Source: Eledone cirrhosa (taxonomy: Eukaryota). From it: a DNA stretch of 64,000 bases. A program made the translations under genes and the position numbers. The stretch spans positions 175,956,001 to 176,020,000 of the forward strand of contig OZ024741.1 in the NCBI GenBank assembly GCA_964016885.1, in the 5' to 3' direction. The notes below the pieces were generated by a model that was given only the letters and a program-made list of their open reading frames with translations, had not been told where the DNA came from and ran no database searches. Positions 6,741-63,955 of the stretch are shown piece after piece. The first letter of the stretch is position 1, and every line of letters begins with the position of its first letter.

Positions 6741-6791
6741 ATATATATATACGATATTAACAAATGGAAACTATATTTATAAAACCATATT

Positions 6792-6856
6792 TATTTCATT
6801 ATACATATTTCAAGGACACCAAGTTAAATTATGGTGTCCTTTCATCAGACAAAATA
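6792..6856 (-). ncRNA. Type I hammerhead at the PLE 3' end
   Basis: tattttgt CTGATGA aaggacacca..tggtgtcctt GAAA tatgta TA atgaaata: perfect 10-bp stem II. Confidence 0.75.
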
Positions 6857-8791
6857 TAATATAGATCAGTTATATAAATAAATATTGACGTACCCTTAAA
6901 GAATGCAACCATTACTGTTGTAAGCTCCCGGATAGTGGAGTTGTTTACTTATATTATTATTAGTATTGGATATTTTTATTTTTAAAATAATCCGTTGGGT
7001 TACAGAGAAAGAAAAAGAAGGAGAGAGAGACAAAGAGAGAAAGAGAAAAAAGAAAGAGAGAAAGATATATAGAGAGAGAGGAGACAGAGAGAAGGGGAGA
7101 GAACGAAAACTATTTGTCATATCTTGTTGAGTTAACTTAACAATTGAGATGAAATGAATAAATAAAATTAGAAATGTTAATAATAATGAATGGAATATAC
7201 ATATATAATATGAGAAATTAATCATTGTTTAAATATGATTAGATGTTTAGTTAATCATTTAAAAATTGAGATCAATATATTAAAAATTGGGATCTATACA
7301 TTAAGAAATACATATATTGCTAGAGAACTACATTTCATATAACACGGAAAAATAAATATAAATATATATACACACGTATAAAATACATACCATATCTAAC
7401 TACGTATATAATATATACACACAAAGCATAAAGGATTCTTTAATTTAATTTAAGATATAGGAATCTTTAAAATGTTATCATTGTTAAGATATTAAAGGAA
7501 ATGTTATGCTATACACACTTTATGTTATTAAATAAAATGTTTTATATAAGTTTTATAAGTTTACCTGTTATGTATTTATGGCTGTTATTATATGTCTATC
7601 TGTCAGGAATCATTGGAATAATCACTATACATAAGTGCAATCAAATAGCATGGATATACACGCACATGCATATACATAATTCTCACATATACATATATAT
7701 ACATGTCTGTGTACCCTCAGCCAATAGGTAGATACGCATCACGCATACATATACATACAGACAGACATACATTCATAAAAACGCATAGAACATATGTACA
7801 TGTATGTCAATACACACATATACATATATACTCACATATAGAGAGAAGTATATATCAATACAGTACATAGTATAATTGAGTACATAAAATGCAAAAGGAT
7901 TATATTATAATTTGGAAATATAATTATAAGCAATATAACTTTAAAAGCAATACAATTTAAAAATATTATAGAATATTTTAAGTTATAATTTCAAAATAAT
8001 AGTATGTTTAATAGATTTAGTATAGAAATTTATCTTACGTATATTTAACTCAAAGTTTTGAAAGGATAAACTTTCGAAAATAGGAGAAGCTATCAGAACA
8101 ATAAGAAAACAATAAAAAAACAATAAAAAAACAATAACAAATAAATAGGAAATATTTTCTCCTTTCAATAGCTCTCAATATATTTCTCTAGAATAGTTTA
8201 TTATATTTATATTTATTTATATTTAGGAAGAAAAGTTATTTATACTTGAGTGTATAATCAGTCAAAAAAGATGAAGGAATTTAATGATTTATCGACAGGT
8301 TTCATATATTAATAAAATTAATTAATTAATTATATACTACATTTTATATTTATATTTATATTTAAAGGTTGAGTTTAATCTATGTCTGCAGCAACTGAAT
8401 AAATTATTCCTTAAGTTCAGGGAATTTTTGGTCTTTAATATAAAGAATATTTCCTCTAACAAAGATCGCAATTTTCTGAAAAGGAGTTAAAAGGAGTAGC
8501 TTCTGAAATAATATTCCAAATCAACGAATATTCAACGTTCTTTAGTTTTATGTCCCATAATAGGCTAGATAGAGAATTTGAAGATTTTTTGTTTGGATCT
8601 GTAAAATAATTTTTATGATTATTGAAGCGGGATTTAAACTCTGTGGAAGTAGATCCCACATAATTAAATGAATTTAAATTAGTTTTTACATTACAATTAT
8701 ATACTACATTTTTAGCTAATCAATTGTTATTTAACGGACAATTAGATTTATTTCTACAGTTACATTTATCAGATTGAATATTGCTTGGGTT

Positions 8792-18124: not shown

Positions 18125-18640
18125 GAATTAGTATCCTAGACACTTCTAAGTATATTAAGAACTGAATAGTGTGCTATATATAAAATAGCGCACATGGTGT
18201 CCTAGCTTGTCTCACAAACTTACACCACTAAAAATAGCAGCCAGGTTTATTCGACATTTGAAATAGCTCACCAAATTAACGGAGCCGAATATATCATTCT
18301 TATCACCTTACCGAATCCGGTCCCTCACGATTTGAACACATATATGTATATGTCTGTGTTCGTTTTTCTTTTATATTCTATTATAATATACGGCTCGGAA
18401 ATATCTCTTTCTTAGAGTTATTTTGTTGTAAGAAACTATTTTGAGTTCCTAACTCAATATATACCTTTGATATATTCGGCTCCGTTAATTTGTTGAGCTA
18501 TTGCAAATGTCGAATAAACCTGGCTGCTATTTTTAGTGGTGTATGTTTGTGAGACACGCTAGGACACCATGTGCGCTATTTTATATATAGCACACTATTC
18601 AGTTTCTTAATATACTTAGAAGTGTCTAGGATACTAATTC

Positions 18641-18718
18641 ATCACCCACTGATGAGCTTGAATCGGTAATTCTATTCACAATTAACATTGCGAAACAACA
18701 ACAAGTTGTCTGGGTGAT
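18641..18718 (+). ncRNA. Canonical type I hammerhead ribozyme
   Basis: atcaccca CTGATGA gc..gc GAAA caac aacaa gttg TC tgggtgat: perfect 8-bp stem I, 5-bp stem III, GUC. Confidence 0.88.
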
Positions 18719-18961
18719 TGGTAGTTACCACAATTCTGGTTTGTATTTATTTTCTTAAATTTTTCTTAAATTGAGACAAGAAAACCCAATTGTCTATAGT
18801 TAGTATTCTTTTCACCTTAGCGAATCAGGTCCGTTACGATTTGGACACATATATCTATATATCTGTGTTCGTTTTTCTTTTATATTCTATTATAATATAC
18901 GGCTCGGAAATATCTCTTTCTTAGAGCTATTTTGTTGTAAGAGACTAAAAGATTGTAACCA

Positions 18962-20490: not shown

Positions 20491-21969
20491 TCTTCTGGTT
20501 TTATAATTTCACAAATGTTTGCCAATAGAGAGAGAGAGTCGGTTTCTAACATAGTTACAAAACTCTCTCATTGGAATTTACACAACATCAACTAGGTAGA
20601 TTATCTATGCATGCATGTGTAGATATGGATGTTATTGTATGTGTGGATGTGTGTGTTTTGAGTTGTATGTATGCATGTGCGTACGCTTTATATCTGTACA
20701 TATGTATATGCAGTTATTAGATCCAAATTGTTTGGAATGTTTTACATATTTTTACTGTTCCATTAATGGATGTACTTGTAATTTCCTAAATAGTTGTGTT
20801 CTTTCTGTTTCTGTGAGGCTCAGCTTCTCAAGATTTGTATTGAGGCAGTTACTAACATATCCCAGTGCGCCAATAATCACAGGCATAAATTTGAAGGTAT
20901 AGTCAGAGTGGAGTATCTGCAGATTTCTCATTAGTTCTGCATAAATATTCTCCTTTTCACTAATCTTTGATATTATATTGGCATCTGCTGGGCAGCTAAC
21001 TTCCTCTACTGTGCATGCCTTCTTTTGCCTGTCCCATATCATTATATCTGGTCTGTTATGCCTGCATTTATTGAGGTTTTTACTGGAAAATTCCACCAGT
21101 ACGCTTTCATATTATGTATATGTATGTCTACCACACAGCTGTAGATTTTATTGTGTTTATTATCGGAACAATCTTTTCTACGGATTGCATTGTACATTGT
21201 TTTGGCCACTACATCATGCCTCATAGGTAGATAGTACCGCGATGACATCTTTGGACAGCTGCTTATGGCATGGGTGATATCCTCGATGTTAATTCTGCAG
21301 AGTCTGCACTTGTCACATCTAGGTGTTTTTCCTGCATCCCTATCTCCTTTGTGATTCAGGTATTTCGTGTTGATTTCCTGTTCTTGGATTGCAAAAGCGT
21401 ATCCTTCAAAGTGGGAGCCAATAAAGCGGTTGTTTGTCCAAGATAGACTACTTTATTTGTCTATATTACCTTCACTCTGGAGCTTCCTGGCAACATATCC
21501 ATGCATGATTTTTTGCTGATAAGCATGCAGTTTTTCATCCATGGATTCACTGCGGTAGTGCTGAGCGACTTCCCTGGGTGTGAGTTTTTGATTATCACAC
21601 AGAGTTCCTTCCCAACTCTCATGATCTTATCTGTAGATTGACTTTCTCAAGAGACGGCCTCCTACGCTTCGAGGTTCGTAGATGTCGGAGGAATAGGATG
21701 CGACATTCAAATGCTTTCCGGACTGATGTTAGGCCTCTGTCTCCCTGCTTACGTTTCAGGTAAAGGCGGTCTATGTCACTGTTGATGTGGAAGTTTCCGC
21801 TGTTGTTTAGTACTTTTCGAGTTCTAACATCAATTGCTCAGATTTCGTCATTCGACTAATTGAGTATTCCAAACGTTTGTGTAAGGACAAGCACAGCAAA
21901 CACATTGTGAGCCACTACTTTATTGTGTGCAGAGAGTTCCGATGACCATATTTTTCTTAATCGGGTGTA

Positions 21970-21970
<1 letters not shown>
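20491..21970 (-). mobile_element. R4/Dong-type RLE retrotransposon family B, 5'-truncated and degenerate
   Basis: KIWSSELSAHNK, MSSRYYLPMRHD, HNRPDIMIWD..EEVSCP; (TATG)n on both sides. Confidence 0.9.
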
Positions 21971-22000
<30 letters not shown>

Positions 22001-22099
22001 TGTATGTATGTATGTATGTTTTCTCTTTCTCTTAATTTCGAGTATATTTTTTTGACCGGCCACCTTCCTGGTGGCAAGGTTGTAAAAGGAAAGAAATTG

Positions 22100-22588
22100 T
22101 CATCCCTTGAATCGCAAGAATGTTTTGCAAATTTTGAAGGTGCCAGCTATCGCAGCCATTTGTAGACCATGAATTAGGGAGCTGCGCTTTTTGTCCGCAA
22201 ATCCAAGTTCGGTCATACTTTGGTCCAAGCGGGTTGGTATATAACCCGTAGCACCAATAATGATGGGCACGAAGCTAAAGGCGTATCTTGGATACTGGAT
22301 TTGTAAGCTCCTCATCAATGGTCCGTAGATGTCCTCCTTCTCCTGTATTTTTCTGACAACGTTTACATCAAGTGGGCAGCTGATCTCCACAACAGAACAC
22401 GTTTTCAATGTGTGGTCCCAAACTACAACATCAGGCCGGCCGTGCTTCAATTTGGTGGCAGCCTTTATCTCCAGGCTCCACCAGCATTCCCCAGTGCCAT
22501 CTGTCTCAATATATTCCTCCTCGTTTGCTGTTAATTTTGTTTTCCGAAGTGCGTTCCAGATAGCTCTAGCTATCCCATCGTGTCTCAT
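22100..22588 (-). CDS. Restriction-like endonuclease (RLE) domain, frameshifted continuation of 22585-25608
   Basis: RHD..HGRPDVVVWD..VVEISCP..KEDIY; the related family B copy reads RYYLPMRHD without a break. Confidence 0.92.
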   Translation of the reverse strand: MRHDGIARAIWNALRKTKLTANEEEYIETDGTGECWWSLEIKAATKLKHGRPDVVVWDHTLKTCSVVEISCPLDVNVVRKIQEKEDIYGPLMRSLQIQYPRYAFSFVPIIIGATGYIPTRLDQSMTELGFADKKRSSLIHGLQMAAIAGTFKICKTFLRFKG

Positions 22589-25500
22589 GGGAGGTAGTAG
22601 CGAGATGACATTCTTTCGCAGCTGGCAACAATGTGGCTTACATCCTCGATCTTTGTTTCACATAGCCTACATTTATTGTCAGCTTGCTGCCCTCCTCTTT
22701 TGTGCAGCAGATATTTGGTAGGGGGTTCTTGTTCCTGTATTGCATAGAGATATCCCTCAAGGTATGATGTCATAAACTTGTCGGAACTCCATGCCAGGCT
22801 TTCCGAGTGGTTTATCCCCTCCATGGTCTGTGTTTTACGCCTCAAGTATCCATGCACAACTTTCTCTGTAAATTGGTCAATTTTTTTTTCTTGTTTGAAC
22901 ATTGAATAGGATCCTCCGATTTCTCTGGGTGAGAGATTTATATCAGGCTTCATTCCATATCTCTCCTCCAGATCAGTCGCCACCCCAATGATATTTCTTC
23001 CTTCATGCTCATAAACCTGAGCAAGATGGTCGCCAACCTTTTTCCTCTGTTGAAGGTGCCGCTTCAGTGTTACTATCCGGGTCTCATATGTTGTTAATAT
23101 TGATTTTAGACCCCAGCCACCTTCCTTGCGTGAGAAGTATAGCCCATCCACATCACCATTGATGTTAAAGTTCCCAGTAACACCGAGAAGTTTTCGAGTT
23201 CCAACATCCATCTCACTTAGTTCTTGCAATGACCAGTTCAGTAGGCCAAATGTTGGCGTTAGAATTGGCACAGCATAGGTATTGTGGGCAATGTATTTGT
23301 TGTATGCTGACAGTTCTGATGACCATATTTTTTTTACTCTTCTGAGGTATTCAGTTCTGGTTCTCTCCTTATTTATGGGTCCATCATATCTGACATTCTC
23401 ATCCTGTCCAAGATATCTGTAGTTGTCACCCGACTGCAGAGGCCGCACTGTCAGGCCGTTCATATCCAGACCTCCAGAGGAGGGCACAGCTCCTCCACGC
23501 CCCACTGCCAAATATGCACACTTGGACTCACCAAATTTCATTTTGATGTCGGTCGAAAATTGTGCAACGAGGTCCAACCGTTTCTTGATGCCATTGACAC
23601 TTGGCCCATACAACTTCAGGTCATCAACAAAGAAAAGATGGGAGATACTTCTGGGCCCACTTCTTTGTCCACCTTGTTTCCTGAGTAGGTAAGATAGTGG
23701 ATTCAGTGAGAGAACGAAGAGTAGTACCGACAAGCTATCACCCTGAAAGATGCCCTTCTGGTAATGTATCCCATCAGTCTTAACCTGCTCCCTCTCACCT
23801 CTAAGGATCAAATTGGTGTACCAGTTCTTGGTCAGGCGTTCAACAGCAGCTACTAATGGTTGTGGGACTTTAGCTAACTGTAAAGCCTTAATAATCCACC
23901 CATGAGGTACACTATCAAATGCTTTTTGATAGTCCAGCCACACGACAGTCATGTTTCTGCGATTCTTTGTTGTTTTTTCCTGAATCATTTTGTTAGTTAG
24001 TAGGTGATCTATGCAACCCCACACCTCCCTCTTTCCACCAGCTTGCTCAGGTGTTATGATGTTGTTGGTAGCACAGTGATCCTGTAAGAACAGGTTAAGG
24101 CACCCAGTATATAATTTATACATGATGTTTTGGCAGGCAATTGGGCGGTAATTTTTAGCAAGGGTGGTTTGGCTATTTTGGGGAATGAGGAGAGTAGTGG
24201 CAGTTGATAACCATCTGGGCAGTTCTTGTGTGCCCTTAATGGTTTCTGTAAACAGCCGTATGAGATCTTGCCGATATAAAGTGAAATTCTTCAACCAGTA
24301 TCCTGTAATGAGGTCTGGGCCTGGCGATTTCCTATTCGACATTTTCTGTAGAGCTGTTTCCAGTATTGACCCATCTATGTCATATTGTTTTGTCTGGACA
24401 TGTTGGCAGTAGTCCTGTTCCAGTTGTTTTAGCCAACTAGCTTGTCTGTTGAATCCGTCATCCGTTTCCCATACAGATCTCCAGTAGTTCTCAACCTGTT
24501 CTTTTGAAGGGGTGTCGTTTACAGGGATTGAGATTTTGCCACCGAAGCTGCGATAAACTGATTTAGGATCTCTGGCAAACAATCTATTTAGCACTTGTCG
24601 TTTATGGGCTGTTGACTTATATTTTAGTCTTTCTGTTGTAGCTGTGAGTTGTTGTTTCAACTGGTGTAATTTGGAGTTCAAAGTTTTAAATTTGGTATCT
24701 CCAAATCGTCTCTCTAACTTTTTCTTTAGGTCTTCCTGGTGTCGTGTGAAGTTTCTCTCTATGTTGCATTTCATAACGACTGCGATGTGTGAGATACTTC
24801 GTCTCAGGGACAAAATTTTGGTTTTTAAATTTCGCATCCACGCTGGTTCAGGCTTTCTGTTTGTATCTTGATTGCGTGGTTTTAGATGTGTGTTATATGA
24901 TAGCAATGTGACAGCTGAAACATATAACAAAACATTGAGCGTTTCAAATGTCGTTTCTACACCTTTAGATCGTATAGCCTTCAGATAATTGCCAGCTATT
25001 TCGTTCACTGCTTCCAATTCCAATTTAGTGGGTTCTTTACTGACTCTAGTGTTGTATGGTCTGTCACTCACATTAAGGCTGTGTATCTCTTGAAACATAT
25101 CGTTCCATATCACTTGTAGGGTGCCCACAAGTTTTTGGTGCTCTGTTTGTTCAGTAGAGTCATGAATTGCAGCCTCGTTGTTGATGTGGTGACAATTACT
25201 ACTAGAGTCAGCTGACCTTTCTCGCTGTTCTTCAGTGGAAGTGGGATGGATTTCAGCAAAATTGTTGGTGAGCTGTTCACTGTTAGATTCAGCTGGCCAT
25301 TCTCTTTGTCTGTCAGTGGAGGTGGGGTGGTTGTCTACAAGGGCTGTATTTGTAGTATCACTCGATTCCGTTAGATGTATCAATTTACATCTAATGATAC
25401 GTTTTGCCTGTTCATTTAGATGCTTTGGAGAAAAGTCTAATTCTGGGTGTTTGGAGTTCCATAAAGTTTTTAGCCTTTGCATAAAACCGAACTTTTGAGG

Positions 25501-25608
25501 TTCAGATTGTTTGTATGCTTCATATAATTCTTTGTTAAGCTCGCAGCTCCACTGTATACAACGGTTGTAATTGCGATTTGGTCGAAGGAGACTTGTACTT
25601 TTTGCCAT
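22585..25608 (-). CDS. Non-LTR retrotransposon protein: N-terminal Myb-like region, RT, CCHC knuckle
   Basis: KSPGPDLI, NYRPIAC, WLDYQKAFDSVPH, GIFQGDSLS, LFFVDDLKLY, YRYLG, CRLC..EDVSHIVASC. Confidence 0.95.
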   Translation of the reverse strand: MAKSTSLLRPNRNYNRCIQWSCELNKELYEAYKQSEPQKFGFMQRLKTLWNSKHPELDFSPKHLNEQAKRIIRCKLIHLTESSDTTNTALVDNHPTSTDRQREWPAESNSEQLTNNFAEIHPTSTEEQRERSADSSSNCHHINNEAAIHDSTEQTEHQKLVGTLQVIWNDMFQEIHSLNVSDRPYNTRVSKEPTKLELEAVNEIAGNYLKAIRSKGVETTFETLNVLLYVSAVTLLSYNTHLKPRNQDTNRKPEPAWMRNLKTKILSLRRSISHIAVVMKCNIERNFTRHQEDLKKKLERRFGDTKFKTLNSKLHQLKQQLTATTERLKYKSTAHKRQVLNRLFARDPKSVYRSFGGKISIPVNDTPSKEQVENYWRSVWETDDGFNRQASWLKQLEQDYCQHVQTKQYDIDGSILETALQKMSNRKSPGPDLITGYWLKNFTLYRQDLIRLFTETIKGTQELPRWLSTATTLLIPQNSQTTLAKNYRPIACQNIMYKLYTGCLNLFLQDHCATNNIITPEQAGGKREVWGCIDHLLTNKMIQEKTTKNRRNMTVVWLDYQKAFDSVPHGWIIKALQLAKVPQPLVAAVERLTKNWYTNLILRGEREQVKTDGIHYQKGIFQGDSLSVLLFVLSLNPLSYLLRKQGGQRSGPRSISHLFFVDDLKLYGPSVNGIKKRLDLVAQFSTDIKMKFGESKCAYLAVGRGGAVPSSGGLDMNGLTVRPLQSGDNYRYLGQDENVRYDGPINKERTRTEYLRRVKKIWSSELSAYNKYIAHNTYAVPILTPTFGLLNWSLQELSEMDVGTRKLLGVTGNFNINGDVDGLYFSRKEGGWGLKSILTTYETRIVTLKRHLQQRKKVGDHLAQVYEHEGRNIIGVATDLEERYGMKPDINLSPREIGGSYSMFKQEKKIDQFTEKVVHGYLRRKTQTMEGINHSESLAWSSDKFMTSYLEGYLYAIQEQEPPTKYLLHKRGGQQADNKCRLCETKIEDVSHIVASCERMSSRYYLP

Positions 25609-26249
25609 GATGAGTTCGTCTATTCACTAATATTTTGTATTTATTTTTTTTAAATAGTCGATGATCTTCTTTAAAAGTTACGACAAAGTTCTGTCAGAAT
25701 CAAATTTAAAGTTATTCACAGCTTGGGTAATATTTCTCTTCAGTTAGTTTTTAATTCTACAACTGTGTTTTAAACGTTGTTCTTGAATCGTTTGAATCGA
25801 GAACAAAAAGAACCGTTACTTAGTATATTCCTTTACGAATGCAACATAATATAACAACGCTGTATTTATATGTTAAAGTTTATGTATCATTCATATAAAT
25901 AGGTGTTCTACAACATATTCACAACATTCACAGTTCAAACACTTATATTTTTGTTTCTGAATCGAAAACGTTACTTCTATATTTCTTTATAAATGCAATA
26001 TAACAACGTTGCATTTATATGTTAAAGTATATGTATCGTTCATATATCATAAGTGTATGTATCGTTCATATAAATAGGTGTTTTACAACACACTTACAGT
26101 TCAAACACTTATGTAGAATTATTGTATGTAATCTTACCGCGTAATGTAGCTCAACTTTTTCCAATATATGGTATGTTGCCTTCATGTAAGCCGTAATTAC
26201 ACACGTCCGATTATCGGACACTGACCACAACGGTCGCCATATGTACGCC

Positions 26250-26918: not shown

Positions 26919-27402
26919 TTTCTCTTTCTCTTAATTTCGAGTATATTTTTTTTGACCGGCCACCTTCCTGGTGGCAAGGTTGTAAAAGAAAAGAAATTGT
27001 CATCCCTTGAATCGCAAGAATGTTTTGCAAATTTTGAAGGTGCCAGCTATCGCAGCCATTTGTAGACTATGAATTAGGGAACTGCGCTTTTTGTCCGCAA
27101 ATCCAAGTTCAGTCATACTTTGGTCTAAGCGGGTTGGTATATAACCCGTAGCACCAATAATGATGGGTATGAAGCTAAAGGTGTATCTTGGATACTGGAT
27201 TTGTAAACTCCTCATCAATCGTCCGTAGATGTCCTCCTTCTCCTGTATTTTTCTGACAACGTTTACATCAAGTGGGCAGCTGATCTCCACAACAGAACAC
27301 GGTTTCAATGTGTGGTCCCAAACTACAATATCAGGCCGGTTGTGCTTTAATTTGGTGGCAGTTTTTATTTTCAGGTTCCACCAGTATTCCTTAGTGCCAT
27401 TT
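26919..27402 (-). mobile_element. R4/Dong family A, 5'-truncated copy
   Basis: Highly similar to 22019-22500 with the same 3' end; (TATG)n on both sides. Confidence 0.92.
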
Positions 27403-27521
27403 GTATGTATGTATGTATGTATGTATGTATGTATGTATGTATGTATGTATGTATGTATGTATGTATGTATGTATGTGTGTATGTATGTATGTATGTATGT
27501 ATGTATGTATGTATGTATGTA

Positions 27522-27748
27522 TCTTTCACGGCACAGGCATTGCTTTATATCTGGAGATCTCTCTGCACTTGTCATCACATGGTACCATGGGTCCAGCACT
27601 ATGTGTCAATAATTGTTACAAGTGTAGTGTTTGTACCAGAGTTTTCATGTCGCTGGCTGGACTAAAAAGTCACACTCGTTCAGCGCAGTGGTTCTACTAC
27701 ATGGATATAATGTAGTGGCCGTGCTCGAAAACGAGTTGGCAGCCACTC
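27522..27748 (+). mobile_element. RTE-derived type 1 element, 5'-truncated
   Basis: Matches 28488-28717; CYKCSVCTRVFMSLAGLKSHTRS remnant. Confidence 0.8.
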
Positions 27749-34134: not shown

Positions 34135-35072
<938 letters not shown>

Positions 35073-57591: not shown

Positions 57592-58677
57592 TTAAATTAG
57601 CCATGTCAGCTCATTTCTCTCAGCCCGGTTGTTAAGTGGGGGTCTGAGGTTCTTAATAACAAGTGCTTCCTTTATCCTTAAGGATCCGATGCTGCGTTCA
57701 GTCGCTAGGACTGTGACCAAGGGTCTGCCCTGTGGGTTTCCGCATTTAAGGATGTGTTTACGGAAGGAAGATGCGTTGGTGTTGACATGTTCCTTGATAC
57801 GAACATGTAGGGGTCGGATGGTGCTACCTATGTAGAACTTGTTACATTTATCGCATTGAATCTTATATACAACATAGGTGCGTAGGCAATCTGCCCCCCG
57901 TATCGGGCAGTTGCTGAGGGAACACGTCCCATCTGACTCGTCGGGTTTGTTGGAGAGGCATCTTCGGAGCGAAGGTCCTGTGTGGGCCAAATGTATGTCA
58001 AGTCCTTCCCTCCGTATGGCCCTGCGGATGGCGTTCGTGGTATATTCACTCAGGTGGGGGATTTTAAAGAAGCACCTGCTTTTATCTAAGTTTCTAGTGG
58101 GTGTCTGTCTATTGGGTCTGGGGTCTCTAATTCCGTTAATCAGTCGCTTGGGATATCCATTAGACTTGAGTAGATTACGGAATTGCGTGGTATGGGTAAG
58201 ACCACCCATCGGGTCGCTGCATCTATTAGTGATCCGTGTAAGTTCATTTAGGACATAGCCTCTCTTAGCGTTGTTGGGGAGGGCTGAGTTGTAATGCACA
58301 AATAAGTCCTTGCACGCTGCCTTGCGGTAGAAGGTGGTGTTTATGTCTCCTTCTTCCGAGATGTTGATACGGAAGTCGAGGAGGGCGAGTGACCCGTCTT
58401 CTCCAGGGTGTTCGATGGTGAAATCGACGTGATGGTCAGTGTCGTTGAAGATTTGGTGAATTTCATTCGCCATCTCCCGGGAAGAAGTGAGTATCAGTAT
58501 GTCATCGACGTATCTGGAGTAGAAGGCGACGGCGTTGGGTTGGCAGGTGTTGAGTGCCTTGCGTTCCAGGTGGTCCATGTACGAGATCGCAAGTATGCCG
58601 GACAGACTAGAGCCCATAGGCAGCCCAGAGATCTGTTTGTACGTGTGGCCGAGGAAATTGAAGAATGCATTATCCAC
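57592..58677 (-). CDS. Penelope-like RT plus GIY-YIG endonuclease (frame extends to ~58940 across one TGA at 58747-58749)
   Basis: SLDVVALYTSVP upstream; QISGLPMGSSLSG, SRYVDDI, FYRK, VVYKIQCDKCNKFYIGST..RIKEH..IKEALVI..P.LN. Confidence 0.93.
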   Translation of the reverse strand: MDNAFFNFLGHTYKQISGLPMGSSLSGILAISYMDHLERKALNTCQPNAVAFYSRYVDDILILTSSREMANEIHQIFNDTDHHVDFTIEHPGEDGSLALLDFRINISEEGDINTTFYRKAACKDLFVHYNSALPNNAKRGYVLNELTRITNRCSDPMGGLTHTTQFRNLLKSNGYPKRLINGIRDPRPNRQTPTRNLDKSRCFFKIPHLSEYTTNAIRRAIRREGLDIHLAHTGPSLRRCLSNKPDESDGTCSLSNCPIRGADCLRTYVVYKIQCDKCNKFYIGSTIRPLHVRIKEHVNTNASSFRKHILKCGNPQGRPLVTVLATERSIGSLRIKEALVIKNLRPPLNNRAERNELTWLI

Positions 58678-59096
58678 AACGAAGGAGAGGAGTTGGTGGA
58701 TGTCCGTGTGTGTGAGTCCGAAGCAGTGTAAGTTAGATGCTCGGACTCATTCGGTCAACAGGTCGGCGGCTGGGGATGCTGGTACGGAGGTATAAAGGGC
58801 GACCACATCAAGACTGAAGGCATATCCGTTGTCCTTTCTGGTGTTGGGCGCCAGATGGTGTAGTCGCTCCAACAACTCCTTTGAGCTGCAGACGTGGGCT
58901 GGTAGTGTGTGTATAATGGGTTTCAGTAGTGTATATACACACTACGTGAGAAATGTGTAAGGGATGAAAGGAGATAAGGAAAGGTAGATAACAGATAGTC
59001 GAGGTTCTGGATGGTACGAGTGTCTGTACACACTCACATAGATATTATAAGATGAAACAAACTTTTTTCTATATTATATATGTATTATGTAAAACA

Positions 59097-60994: not shown

Positions 60995-61176
60995 AATTGT
61001 TTCTACGTTAGGCACAAAGCCAGCAAATACCCAGTGCATTACTGGTACTTTATTTTATCGACCTAGTAAGGATGAAAGGCAAAGTTAACCTTGGCGGGAT
61101 TTGAACTCAGAATGGCAAGGGCCGTAACTCTGTGCGTCAAAGCATGGCGCCCGACCCTCTACCGATACTGCCAATC
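60995..61176 (-). mobile_element. tRNA-SINE family A
   Basis: Reverse complement of 50868-51052. Confidence 0.87.
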
Positions 61177-61184
61177 ATAGAATA

Positions 61185-61425
61185 CACACGTTCTAGAAGG
61201 AACCATCGTCAATACATACATATAGACAATATTGAACATGCACTAGAAAGGCCCATAGTAAAAAGGTTGACACACTCTAGAAAGATCCAGTCAAAATGTT
61301 TATAACCTCTAGAAAGACCTTTTGTCAAAATGTGGGCACGCACTAGAAAGACATATCGTCAAACAGTAGATTCGATCTAGATGTATCTATCGTTAAAATG
61401 TGAACACACTCTAGAAGGACATATG
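61185..61425. repeat. Degenerate ~37-bp minisatellite
   Basis: Recurring cacactctagaaagac..cgtcaaaatg. Confidence 0.7.
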
Positions 61426-61574
61426 TGCAATTGTCCATAATATAACGAAAAGTTGACGAAACGTTGCTACATAAAGATAATTATTTAATCGGTATTGAAC
61501 ACTCTTTCTCGCGTTTATCAATACTAAACGTATATATATATGTATATATATGTATATATATGTATATATATGTA

Positions 61575-62063
61575 TAAAATATGTAGTTTAGAAAGCCACA
61601 ACAATGCAGATGGGAAATCTCGAGGTAAGAAGTGAGTGAGAAATAGGAGAATAGTGAAAATTGAGAGAAACGAAAATGAAAACAAAACAAAGGTAGAAGG
61701 GTTACCGTAGTGGAGATTTAATCCTAATATTTCGGGCTCACGCCCATCAACGGGGGAAAGTTCCAAAAGGGGGGGAACAGGCTAAGCCGGAGAAAGTTGT
61801 ATTGTCGTTAAAACATAGGAATGCCGTTATGGGGAAAATTCAAACGAGGGAAAGAATGCGCGTGTGCGTGATATATGGGATTAAATCTCTACTACGGTAA
61901 CCCTTCTACCTTTGTTTTGTTTTCATTTTCGTTTCTCTCAATTTTCTCTATTCTCCTATTTCTCACTCACTTCTTACCTCGAGATTTCCCATCTGCATTG
62001 TTGTGGCCGTCTAAACTACATATTTTACACATTTCGCAATGCTTCAAGCAAACTTTAACACCC

Positions 62064-62065
<2 letters not shown>
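61575..62065. mobile_element. Solo pLTR insertion of the 57-59 kb PLE family, with an inverted arm
   Basis: 61575-61865 matches 56980-57262; 61877-62027 is its inverted copy; (TA)n flanks. Confidence 0.88.
61722..61757 (-). ncRNA. Hammerhead-like CCGUUGA variant, copy 2
   Basis: Same core as 57117-57152. Confidence 0.55.
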
Positions 62066-62131
<66 letters not shown>

Positions 62132-62174: not shown

Positions 62175-62336
62175 GTATAAAAAAGGTGTGGTAACATACC
62201 AAGTGGACCATAATGCACCAGAGTACTCGATACTTAGAGTAGTAGAGTGGGTAATAGGAAAAGAGTGAGGACCACGTTCGGATCTAGCAGTCGAAACGGC
62301 CGAAGGTCAGCCGTCAGGGTCCTGACTCTTTTCCTA

Positions 62337-62340
<4 letters not shown>
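62175..62340. mobile_element. Short inverted-arm insertion with the 3' half of a hammerhead
   Basis: ctagcagtc GAAA cggc..gccg TC agggtcctgactcttttcc; same family as 32458-32630. Confidence 0.65.
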
Positions 62341-62384
<44 letters not shown>

Positions 62385-62453
62385 TATGAAGAGAGAGGAA
62401 ACATTTAGATATAATTAGTAATAAAATGTATCATACCTAAACTGTTCCTAAAT

Positions 62454-62541
62454 TCCTCGACTACGTAGTTTCGTGGCATAAACAAAAACAATATATCAAA
62501 GATATAGAGTCCTTGCGAGGTCTGCCGACTTATCAAGAGGA
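62454..62541 (-). ncRNA. Type I hammerhead, U3-A8 variant (copy 1)
   Basis: tcctc TTGATAA gtcggca..tgccac GAAA ctacgtag TC gagga. Confidence 0.82.
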
Positions 62542-63044
62542 TACCTCATTTTACTAGTCTCAAGAACGCGTCTACACGACGTGAGAAAGAATCCCAAAAG
62601 GCGGAGGGGGAGACAGTCACGCGATATAACGGTCGAGAAACAGAGCTAAGCCTCTTATAACCACGAAGAAAATACCACGGAGGCGGAGGGGGTATTCATA
62701 TCGAGGCCGTAGAAGAGGTAGTGAAGAAGGCGAGAAGTATGAGTAATGGAAGCTTTCCAGTTGTCCCCACACTTCAAAGATTGCTCGACCAGAGGGAGTT
62801 ATTAATATATTTAGAAACACACAGATACATGCGGACACACACATATATACATGAATGCATCCGCACCCAACTGTGAGTTAAGGGTGCCAACTTCACCGAT
62901 GTTGCTCAATGAATGACTGGGACAGACCAATTCAGTTTGAACCAGACTGAACCAGTATCAGAGTTAAAAATACATTATGAAGAGAGAGGAAACATTTAGA
63001 TATAATTAGTAATAAAATGTATCATACCTAAACTGTTCCTAAAT

Positions 63045-63132
63045 TCCTCGACTACGTAGTTTCGTGGCATAAACAAAAACAATATATCAAAGATATAGAG
63101 TCCTTGCGAGGTCTGCCGACTTATCAAGAGGA
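63045..63132 (-). ncRNA. Type I hammerhead, U3-A8 variant (copy 2)
   Basis: Identical motif 591 nt from copy 1. Confidence 0.82.
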
Positions 63133-63471
63133 TACCTCATTTTACTAGTCTCAAGAACGCGTCTACACGACGTGAGAAAGAATCCCAAAAGGCGGAGAGG
63201 GAGACAGTCACGCGATATAACGGTCGAGAAACAGAGCTAAGCCTCTTATAACCACGAAGAAAATACCACGGAGGCGGAGGGGGTATTCATATCGAGGCCG
63301 TAGAAGAGGTAGTGAAGAAGGCGAGAAGTATGAGTAATGGAAGCTTTCCAGTTGTCCCCACACTTCAAAGATTGCTCGACCAGAGGGAGTTATTAATATA
63401 TTTAGAAACACACAGATACATGCGGACACACACATATATACATGAATGCATCCGCACCCAATATATATATA

Positions 63472-63917
63472 TAAAGAATTAATATCTAGTAACATATATA
63501 TATGTTACTAGATATTAATTCTTTATAATTATCTCCAAATTATTTGTCGAGCAATATTGGCCAGGACTGCTGCCATGGCAGCAGGCAGGCCGCTGTCTTC
63601 TTAACAAACCACTTTCCACTGATTGACCTCGATGTCACGTGATTGATTCTTTTTGAATTGCCACCGACGCAGTAGGCAGTGATTTTCTCAATGGCTAGGA
63701 ATTCAGTCCACGCTTTGCTATTTTCTATCCACTGAATTATTTTTGTATAAGTTTCCAGAGTCCACGCTTTGACTGGATACTTAGCTGAGAATAGACTTCC
63801 CTGACGACGAAATGATTCTCTATATTTTCTTCGGAAAGTATATTTATTCCATTTCAGAAACTAATTAGTTGGGAGCGAAATTTTAGTAAGTTAATTTTAT
63901 AATTTTCTTATTTTACG

Positions 63918-63923
<6 letters not shown>
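63472..63923 (+). mobile_element. Diverged relative of the 540-nt retrozyme-like family
   Basis: Shares atctccaaattattt, gtcacgtgattgattc, ttagctgagaatagact and the 3' end with 31369-32412; starts with a ~54-nt palindrome. Confidence 0.8.
63796..63875 (+). ncRNA. Type I hammerhead
   Basis: cttcc CTGACGA cgaaatg..catttca GAAA ctaattag TT gggag. Confidence 0.8.

Positions 63924-63955
<32 letters not shown>

Follow-up and report, generated by a model that had tools for sequence, protein, structure and literature searches.

A 591-nt tandem hammerhead element with two fixed insertion ends in Eledone cirrhosa, a likely non-LTR retrozyme

The locus

The stretch of Eledone cirrhosa DNA analyzed here (hereafter, the window; 64,000 nucleotides) contains, on the minus strand near its right end (62379-63460), a unit of 591 nt repeated head to tail 1.83 times (Table 1). 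An earlier note on this DNA, made from the letters alone, had described two near-identical units, each with the hammerhead core UUGAUAA. Both hammerheads and the period of 591 are as described, but only the first unit is complete; the second stops after 491 nt. The two copies are identical at 491 of 492 aligned bases, the sole mismatch being 62607 versus 63198, which bears out the claim of a recent insertion. The longest stop-free frame in the unit, on either strand, is 86 codons.

Table 1. Coordinates of the insertion, its hammerheads and its predicted structures (window positions)
Feature	Position	Strand	Remark
Whole insertion, 1.83 units	62379-63460	-	5'-truncated at unit position 1; 3' end is fixed site A (unit 491)
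Full 591-nt unit	62870-63460	-	42% GC
Partial second unit, positions 1-491	62379-62869	-	
165-nt "tail"	62805-62969	-	bounded by the fixed ends A (62970) and B (62805); copy 1 reads through A, and B is read through here
(TA)n microsatellite at insertion 3' end	62338-62381	.	
Short (TA)n flanking insertion 5' end	about 63461-63472		
Type I hammerhead, copy 1	63045-63132	-	predicted to be cut after C 63050
Copy 1 stem I	63128-63132 with 63045-63049	-	
Copy 1 core UUGAUAA	63121-63127	-	
Copy 1 stem II	63064-63120	-	
Copy 1 palindromic helix III	63051-63060	-	
Hammerhead, copy 2	62454-62541	-	same sequence as copy 1, with its core at 62530-62536 and the predicted cut after C 62459
Predicted 591-nt cleavage monomer	62459-63049	-	circle -174 kcal/mol, z -6.3 versus shuffles
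Long hairpin sequestering the 3' strand of stem I	62979-63049	-	predicted off-state, conserved among 13 diverged sequences of the subfamilies

The hammerhead and its U3-A8 core

Both window copies read UCCUC-UUGAUAA-stem II-GAAA-CUACGUAG-UC-GAGGA. This is a type I hammerhead, with three helices around a conserved core: stem I consists of 5 Watson-Crick pairs, stem II is 57 nt long (GU.GGCA/UGCCAC, closing pair G10.1-C11.1), a palindromic ACUACGUAGU is present, U3-A8 supplies the 3-8 Watson-Crick pair, and GAAA and an NUH site (GUC) are in place. The two C17 positions, 63050 and 62459, lie exactly 591 apart, so the monomer length that the note had calculated is correct. An Rfam search of the window returned no hammerhead even at E <= 10, only AT-repeat miRNA noise. 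Such a miss is expected from the variant core and the long stem II. Standard searches thus do overlook the motif, as the note had foreseen for CUGANGA searches.

The U3-A8 core in nature is already known and is not a discovery. In the available text of the papers concerned, natural covariation to U3-A8 was reported in 2011 (Perreault 2011, PMC3088659) and about 1,300 U3-A8 motifs were reported in Schistosoma Penelope-like elements (PLEs) in 2014 (PMC4209133). The hammerheads described there, including those of the Schistosoma Cercyon PLE, show the same core covariation as our family. The schistosome motifs, as far as those texts describe them, are heterogeneous, mostly single and minimal, whereas our family is a homogeneous tandem one in which the variant is fixed.

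The family in the genome and its old subfamilies

Searching the genome with the unit gave 167 matches from the best 40 of 423 candidates, mostly 99-100% identical, arranged in 591-nt arrays and dispersed over many contigs. A pattern made from the hammerhead flanks, which left the seven core bases free, had 5,839 exact sites genome-wide and none for the reversed control; the motif is therefore not a product of chance. Among these hammerheads, 5,816 keep both U3 and A8, 10 are without U3, 13 are without A8, and none is C3-G8. The joint occurrence of the two substitutions thus stands, and the outcome that the note had named as counting against it, family copies with just one of them, is confined to these few sites. 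The note had also called the double change "compensatory". That word fits the established structure; no covariation is seen in the family, which has no C3-G8 member, so the term is borrowed from that structure.

Older subfamilies, at 72-82% identity, retain the 591-nt unit, U3-A8 and similar ends, and one diagnostic pattern for them has 428 matches. Of 45 distinct old or intermediate hammerheads, found with a regular expression that demanded several core bases and is thus biased toward intact cores, 40 read UUGAUAA and none is C3-G8. Across 41 diverged copies, 92.5% of cells are paired under the hammerhead fold, and sliding the partners lowers the figure to 30-58%; one stem I pair is compensatory (UA 26, CG 7, UG 6). 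Covariation over the whole structure in these 41 copies, in which helix III is invariant by selection, was not above shuffles on four of five measures and exceeded them on score only (16/500). Unit positions 391-416, outside the selecting pattern, have zero subfamily variants.

Two candidates were set aside. A relative with a short stem II and the same helix III had 14 matches, which are mostly deleted family copies, and a B-box-like word in the tail, considered as a promoter, is missing by eye from the older subfamilies. Among the sequencing runs listed as containing the unit, none is an RNA run. In two runs, whose kind is unstated, a single contig equals one unit plus 30 bases; either a tandem DNA array or a circle gives this, and we did not count it as evidence.

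Two fixed insertion ends

We read the ends of 97 insertions at 95 loci (38 from the top matches and 59 from consecutive chromosome 1 matches). Family copies end at either of two fixed sites 165 nt apart, at unit 491 (A) or unit 65 (B). In simple insertions the 3' end is A in 22, B in 20 and elsewhere in 2, and the 5' ends vary. Inverted insertions combine one A and one B, with the ends facing outward, in 49 of 53 rows; the other four rows have one odd end, and same-site pairs number zero. As L092 carries a duplicated insertion, counting it once gives 48 of 52. Heterotypic pairing to this degree has a probability of about 1e-15 under independent choice of site. The junctions between inverted arms are blunt or overlap by a few bases in 36 of 53. 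By BLAST, the old subfamilies show the same end pattern with one ambiguous A/A; L248, an old inverted copy, looks A/A, and another element abuts that end.

These insertions bear the signs of the PLE type, namely 5' truncation, an inverted arm, a tail at one end and a microsatellite target. The flanks are (TA)n, in which a target-site duplication is unreadable. At 165 nt, the tail lies outside the 30-40 bp PLE range; PLE tail length does vary, since an autonomous PLE in this genome (see below) has 64-65 nt. The two fixed 3' ends are a more informative feature than the U3-A8 core, and the double ends together with the shared haplotypes of the units are the useful part of the finding. A literature search, with repeat libraries, subscription papers and supplements (bioRxiv, PMC8557442, PMC7229834) outside its scope, turned up neither an account of this family nor one of retrozymes with double ends.

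Folding and predicted cleavage

Folding predictions give the isolated motif a hammerhead fold. In the 591-nt circle and in the 1,082-nt precursor, however, the probability of stem I is predicted to be ~0, as it is in all nascent-length snapshots, its strands being engaged instead by a GAGG upstream and a run of pyrimidines downstream. Helix III comes to +1.5 kcal/mol as a hairpin, which is unstable, and to -12.9 as a duplex; two hammerhead fragments co-fold into a canonical dimer at -58.9 versus -45.2 kcal/mol. From these models we infer that cleavage may depend on a dimer, with the monomer locked. The earlier note had proposed that two sites on the same strand release a monomer. The spacing of 591 agrees with this, but simple release from two independent sites is doubtful, because stem I is predicted at ~0 in the full-length RNA monomer, and a dimeric fold is likelier. 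Two published statements count against the explanation given below: most metazoan retrozyme circles are predicted to be free to fold, according to the available discussion of PMC7229834, and 8 of 9 predicted Xenopus retrozymes gave no cleavage in the available text of a recent preprint (bioRxiv 10.64898/2026.07.22.740005).

Unit haplotypes

Variants were compared at 92 loci, at sites covered in two or more units. At such sites, 172 variants were present in all covered units, 148 in a single unit and 11 in part of the units. Of the all-unit variants, 27 were private to one locus, where "private" is relative to the 92 sampled loci and an unseen homogeneous donor array could exist. The insertion in the window is itself an example, with a private variant at unit 473 in both copies. 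Six of the 11 partial variants are an artefact of L092; the remaining five occur in L139 (twice), L032, L031 and L039. In inverted insertions, common variants were found in both arms 68 of 72 times, while private variants were in both arms in 16 cases and in one arm in 53, as later mutation would give. Since a single haplotype mostly runs through all units of an insertion and, where it is inverted, through both arms, the data favor one monomer, presumably a circle, as the template of each insertion; the five partial variants count against it.

A candidate helper

A second, unrelated U3-A8 family has a short hammerhead with the core UUGAAAA and 6,267 motif matches in the genome. This hammerhead lies about 1.1 kb behind a 775-aa ORF (L320:2304-4631; family loci L251-L280 and L320-L323) that scores in Pfam above the cut-off for GIY-YIG and just below it for reverse transcriptase (RT). 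The ORF carries a CX4CXXC linker, typical of Neptune/Nematis in the available text of PMC8557442, and 16 of the 150 copies listed keep an uninterrupted full-length frame. This autonomous, Neptune-like PLE targets (TA)n and has two ends 64-65 nt apart. All seven of its classified inverted insertions are heterotypic (four rows are unclassified), a control that we count in favor of the explanation given below. The distance from the cleavage site to the first end is 78-79 nt in this PLE versus 80 in the 591-nt family, and the two share pyrimidine-rich end motifs. In six other hammerhead families used as a control (3-30 sequences each), the main distance to the end was 45-50, 95, 125-130 or 300 nt, with the F2 row confounded by an internal AT run. 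The 591-nt unit has no alignable homology to either of the two PLE families compared, and the intact 775-aa U3-A8 PLE is for this reason a candidate helper only.

Comparison with known systems

The earlier note's assignment to retrozymes is upheld by what the family looks like: dispersed, mobile, low-GC tandem units, each with a type I hammerhead, no frame above 86 codons and no PLE ORF attached in the sampled loci. Metazoan non-LTR retrozymes, as the available text of two reports describes them (PMC7229834; bioRxiv 10.64898/2026.07.22.740005), likewise lack ORFs and are built of tandem units that each carry one type I hammerhead; they have a palindromic helix III, GC below 45-50% and thousands of copies, and 591 nt falls inside the 51-972 bp range given in the preprint. 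Unlike them, as published there, our family has a U3-A8 core, a 57-nt stem II and a circle that is predicted to block itself, and its insertions have mapped double ends and include inverted ones. It differs from plant LTR retrozymes, which have type III hammerheads in LTRs, a PBS/PPT and a 4-bp target-site duplication, in being type I and tandem.

The PLEs compared (Neptune/Nematis/Naiad, and Poseidon PAc) resemble the family in 5' truncation, partial tandems, an inverted arm, a tail at one end, a (TA)n target and a hammerhead upstream of the 3' end. The available text of PMC8557442 lists partial tandems, an inverted truncated copy, a tail at one end and a (TA)n bias as PLE hallmarks. The family is unlike PLEs in that it lacks the RT/GIY-YIG ORF of an autonomous PLE, has a tail of 165 nt versus 30-40 bp, and has arms that can both be multimeric. 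In the way it works the family resembles a non-autonomous PLE. The non-autonomous Chlamys elements such as MRC1 (PMC8557442, in the text available) are likewise ORF-less PLE dependants with multicopy head-to-tail insertions; these share 3' sequence with their helper and are described without canonical hammerheads, whereas our family has a hammerhead and no alignable helper was found.

Proposed mechanism and alternatives

We consider it likely that this ORF-less, (TA)n-flanked U3-A8 element is a non-LTR retrozyme whose RNA, through predicted dimer self-cleavage, yields 591-nt circles that are copied by a Penelope-like RT. The family, its core, ends and target and the sharing of haplotypes are observed. 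In the cycle that we infer, multimeric transcripts would cleave via a two-ribozyme fold held by the 10-bp helix III, and the monomer would circularise, with the conserved hairpin locking stem I off. A PLE RT/GIY-YIG protein, probably a dimer, would then nick both strands of (TA)n and prime at A and B, one per strand, and each RT would round the circle to make a tandem arm. One finished arm would leave a simple 5'-truncated copy, as in the window, and the joining of two arms would produce an inverted insertion that ends in A on one side and in B on the other. Biochemistry of purified Poseidon offers a parallel: in the available text of PMC11167929, there are two internal RT start sites, both strands are nicked and extended, and a dimer is predicted. 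Against the scheme, PLE priming in vitro did not need hammerhead cleavage there.

A more specific version, which we put forward tentatively and hold to be somewhat improbable as a whole, is that a dimeric Penelope RT engages a single circular ribozyme RNA at two sites 165 nt apart, one per nicked strand, with both enzymes rolling round the same circle, and that the helper is the intact U3-A8 Neptune-like PLE, whose recognition would depend on structure and spacing and not on sequence in common. If this is true, the genome would record rolling-circle twin priming.

The strongest competitor, though an unlikely one in our judgment, keeps the PLE dependence and replaces the circle with an uncleaved linear multimer transcribed from a donor array; arrays would be homogenised or lengthened at the DNA level, and the hammerhead would be weak or serve for transcript trimming only. 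The predicted loss of stem I speaks for it, as does unprocessed RNA being the main substrate in the Poseidon assay (PMC11167929, available text). So do two of the partial variants: the one in L032 is confined to the last unit of each arm, the pattern expected of a multimeric template, and 29C in L031 is aperiodic, in 3 of 13 units. However, partial variants number just five against the 172 all-unit variants, 27 of them private, and for one variant to be fixed in as many as 13 units and in both arms, a bottleneck of one monomer is required at some step.

It is far less probable that the unit is the pseudo-LTR of an unsampled autonomous PLE and the copies are truncated PLE ends. Every PLE end signature is present, and kinship between pseudo-LTRs and retrozymes is reported in Xenopus in the available text of the preprint (bioRxiv 10.64898/2026.07.22.740005). 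Against this, arrays of up to 12.6 units close on themselves, and no sampled copy, young or old, continues into a PLE ORF at the ~150 loci sampled out of thousands, the single weak tblastn match being in the flank of L230. Satellite DNA spread by recombination, with the hammerhead a dead relic, would account for head-to-tail arrays and is largely excluded by the dispersal of the insertions, whose 3' ends are fixed, whose 5' ends vary and which include inversions, by the absence of subfamily variants at unit 391-416 and by the compensatory stem I pair.

If the retrozyme reading holds, the family bears on two questions in the literature. PLE mobilisation of retrozymes has been proposed from co-occurrence and pseudo-LTR similarity, and for animal retrozymes both mobilisation and circles as real templates are, in the available text, proposed and not shown (PMC7229834; bioRxiv 10.64898/2026.07.22.740005). 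How PLEs produce inverted one-tailed insertions is called undefined in the available text of PMC8557442. Because this genome contains thousands of young insertions of a 591-nt template, with both start sites mapped, together with an intact candidate enzyme, a single in vitro assay could address the retrozyme question and the PLE question alike. Retrozyme censuses also undercount, because CUGANGA descriptors miss both of the families here, about 12,000 motifs in all.

Other elements

The window holds a PLE of its own, a 5'-truncated RT plus GIY-YIG element at 57592-58746 (-) with a 3' region reaching to about 56980. Its family is very abundant and young, with 26,969 first-look candidates. The 3' region of this PLE occurs again at 61570-62085 as an inverted insertion, which has a tail of about 45 nt and, by scan, no hammerhead. 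We rejected this PLE as parent or helper of the 591-nt family, as its 3' region is unrelated and a hammerhead is absent by scan.

Other families contribute three motifs that resemble type I hammerheads with the canonical C3-G8, at 6790-6860 (-), 18640-18720 (+) and 34340-34440 (-); the first and third each lie a short way upstream of (TA)n. At 62200-62340 (+) and 61400-61540 (+) there are short (TA)n-flanked element ends in which GAAAC motifs look like part of a hammerhead but no 5' strand of the core is recognisable. Another (TA)n-flanked repeat, at 63473-63925, has a perfect short inverted end around 63473-63530, and its family also flanks L013 and L029. Five degenerate repeats of 32-34 nt containing CTAGAAAG occupy 61243-61419, and what we take to be a SINE lies at 61000-61180. 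A LINE-type RT frame of 1,012 aa (RVT_1, zf-RVT) spans 22585-25623 (-), with related fragments at 20750-22660 and 27000-27600. Outside the window, an element beginning CTAG...CCCGGCGTTGC, presumably Helitron-like, is inserted exactly at end A of old family copies (L248:~840, L231, L199).
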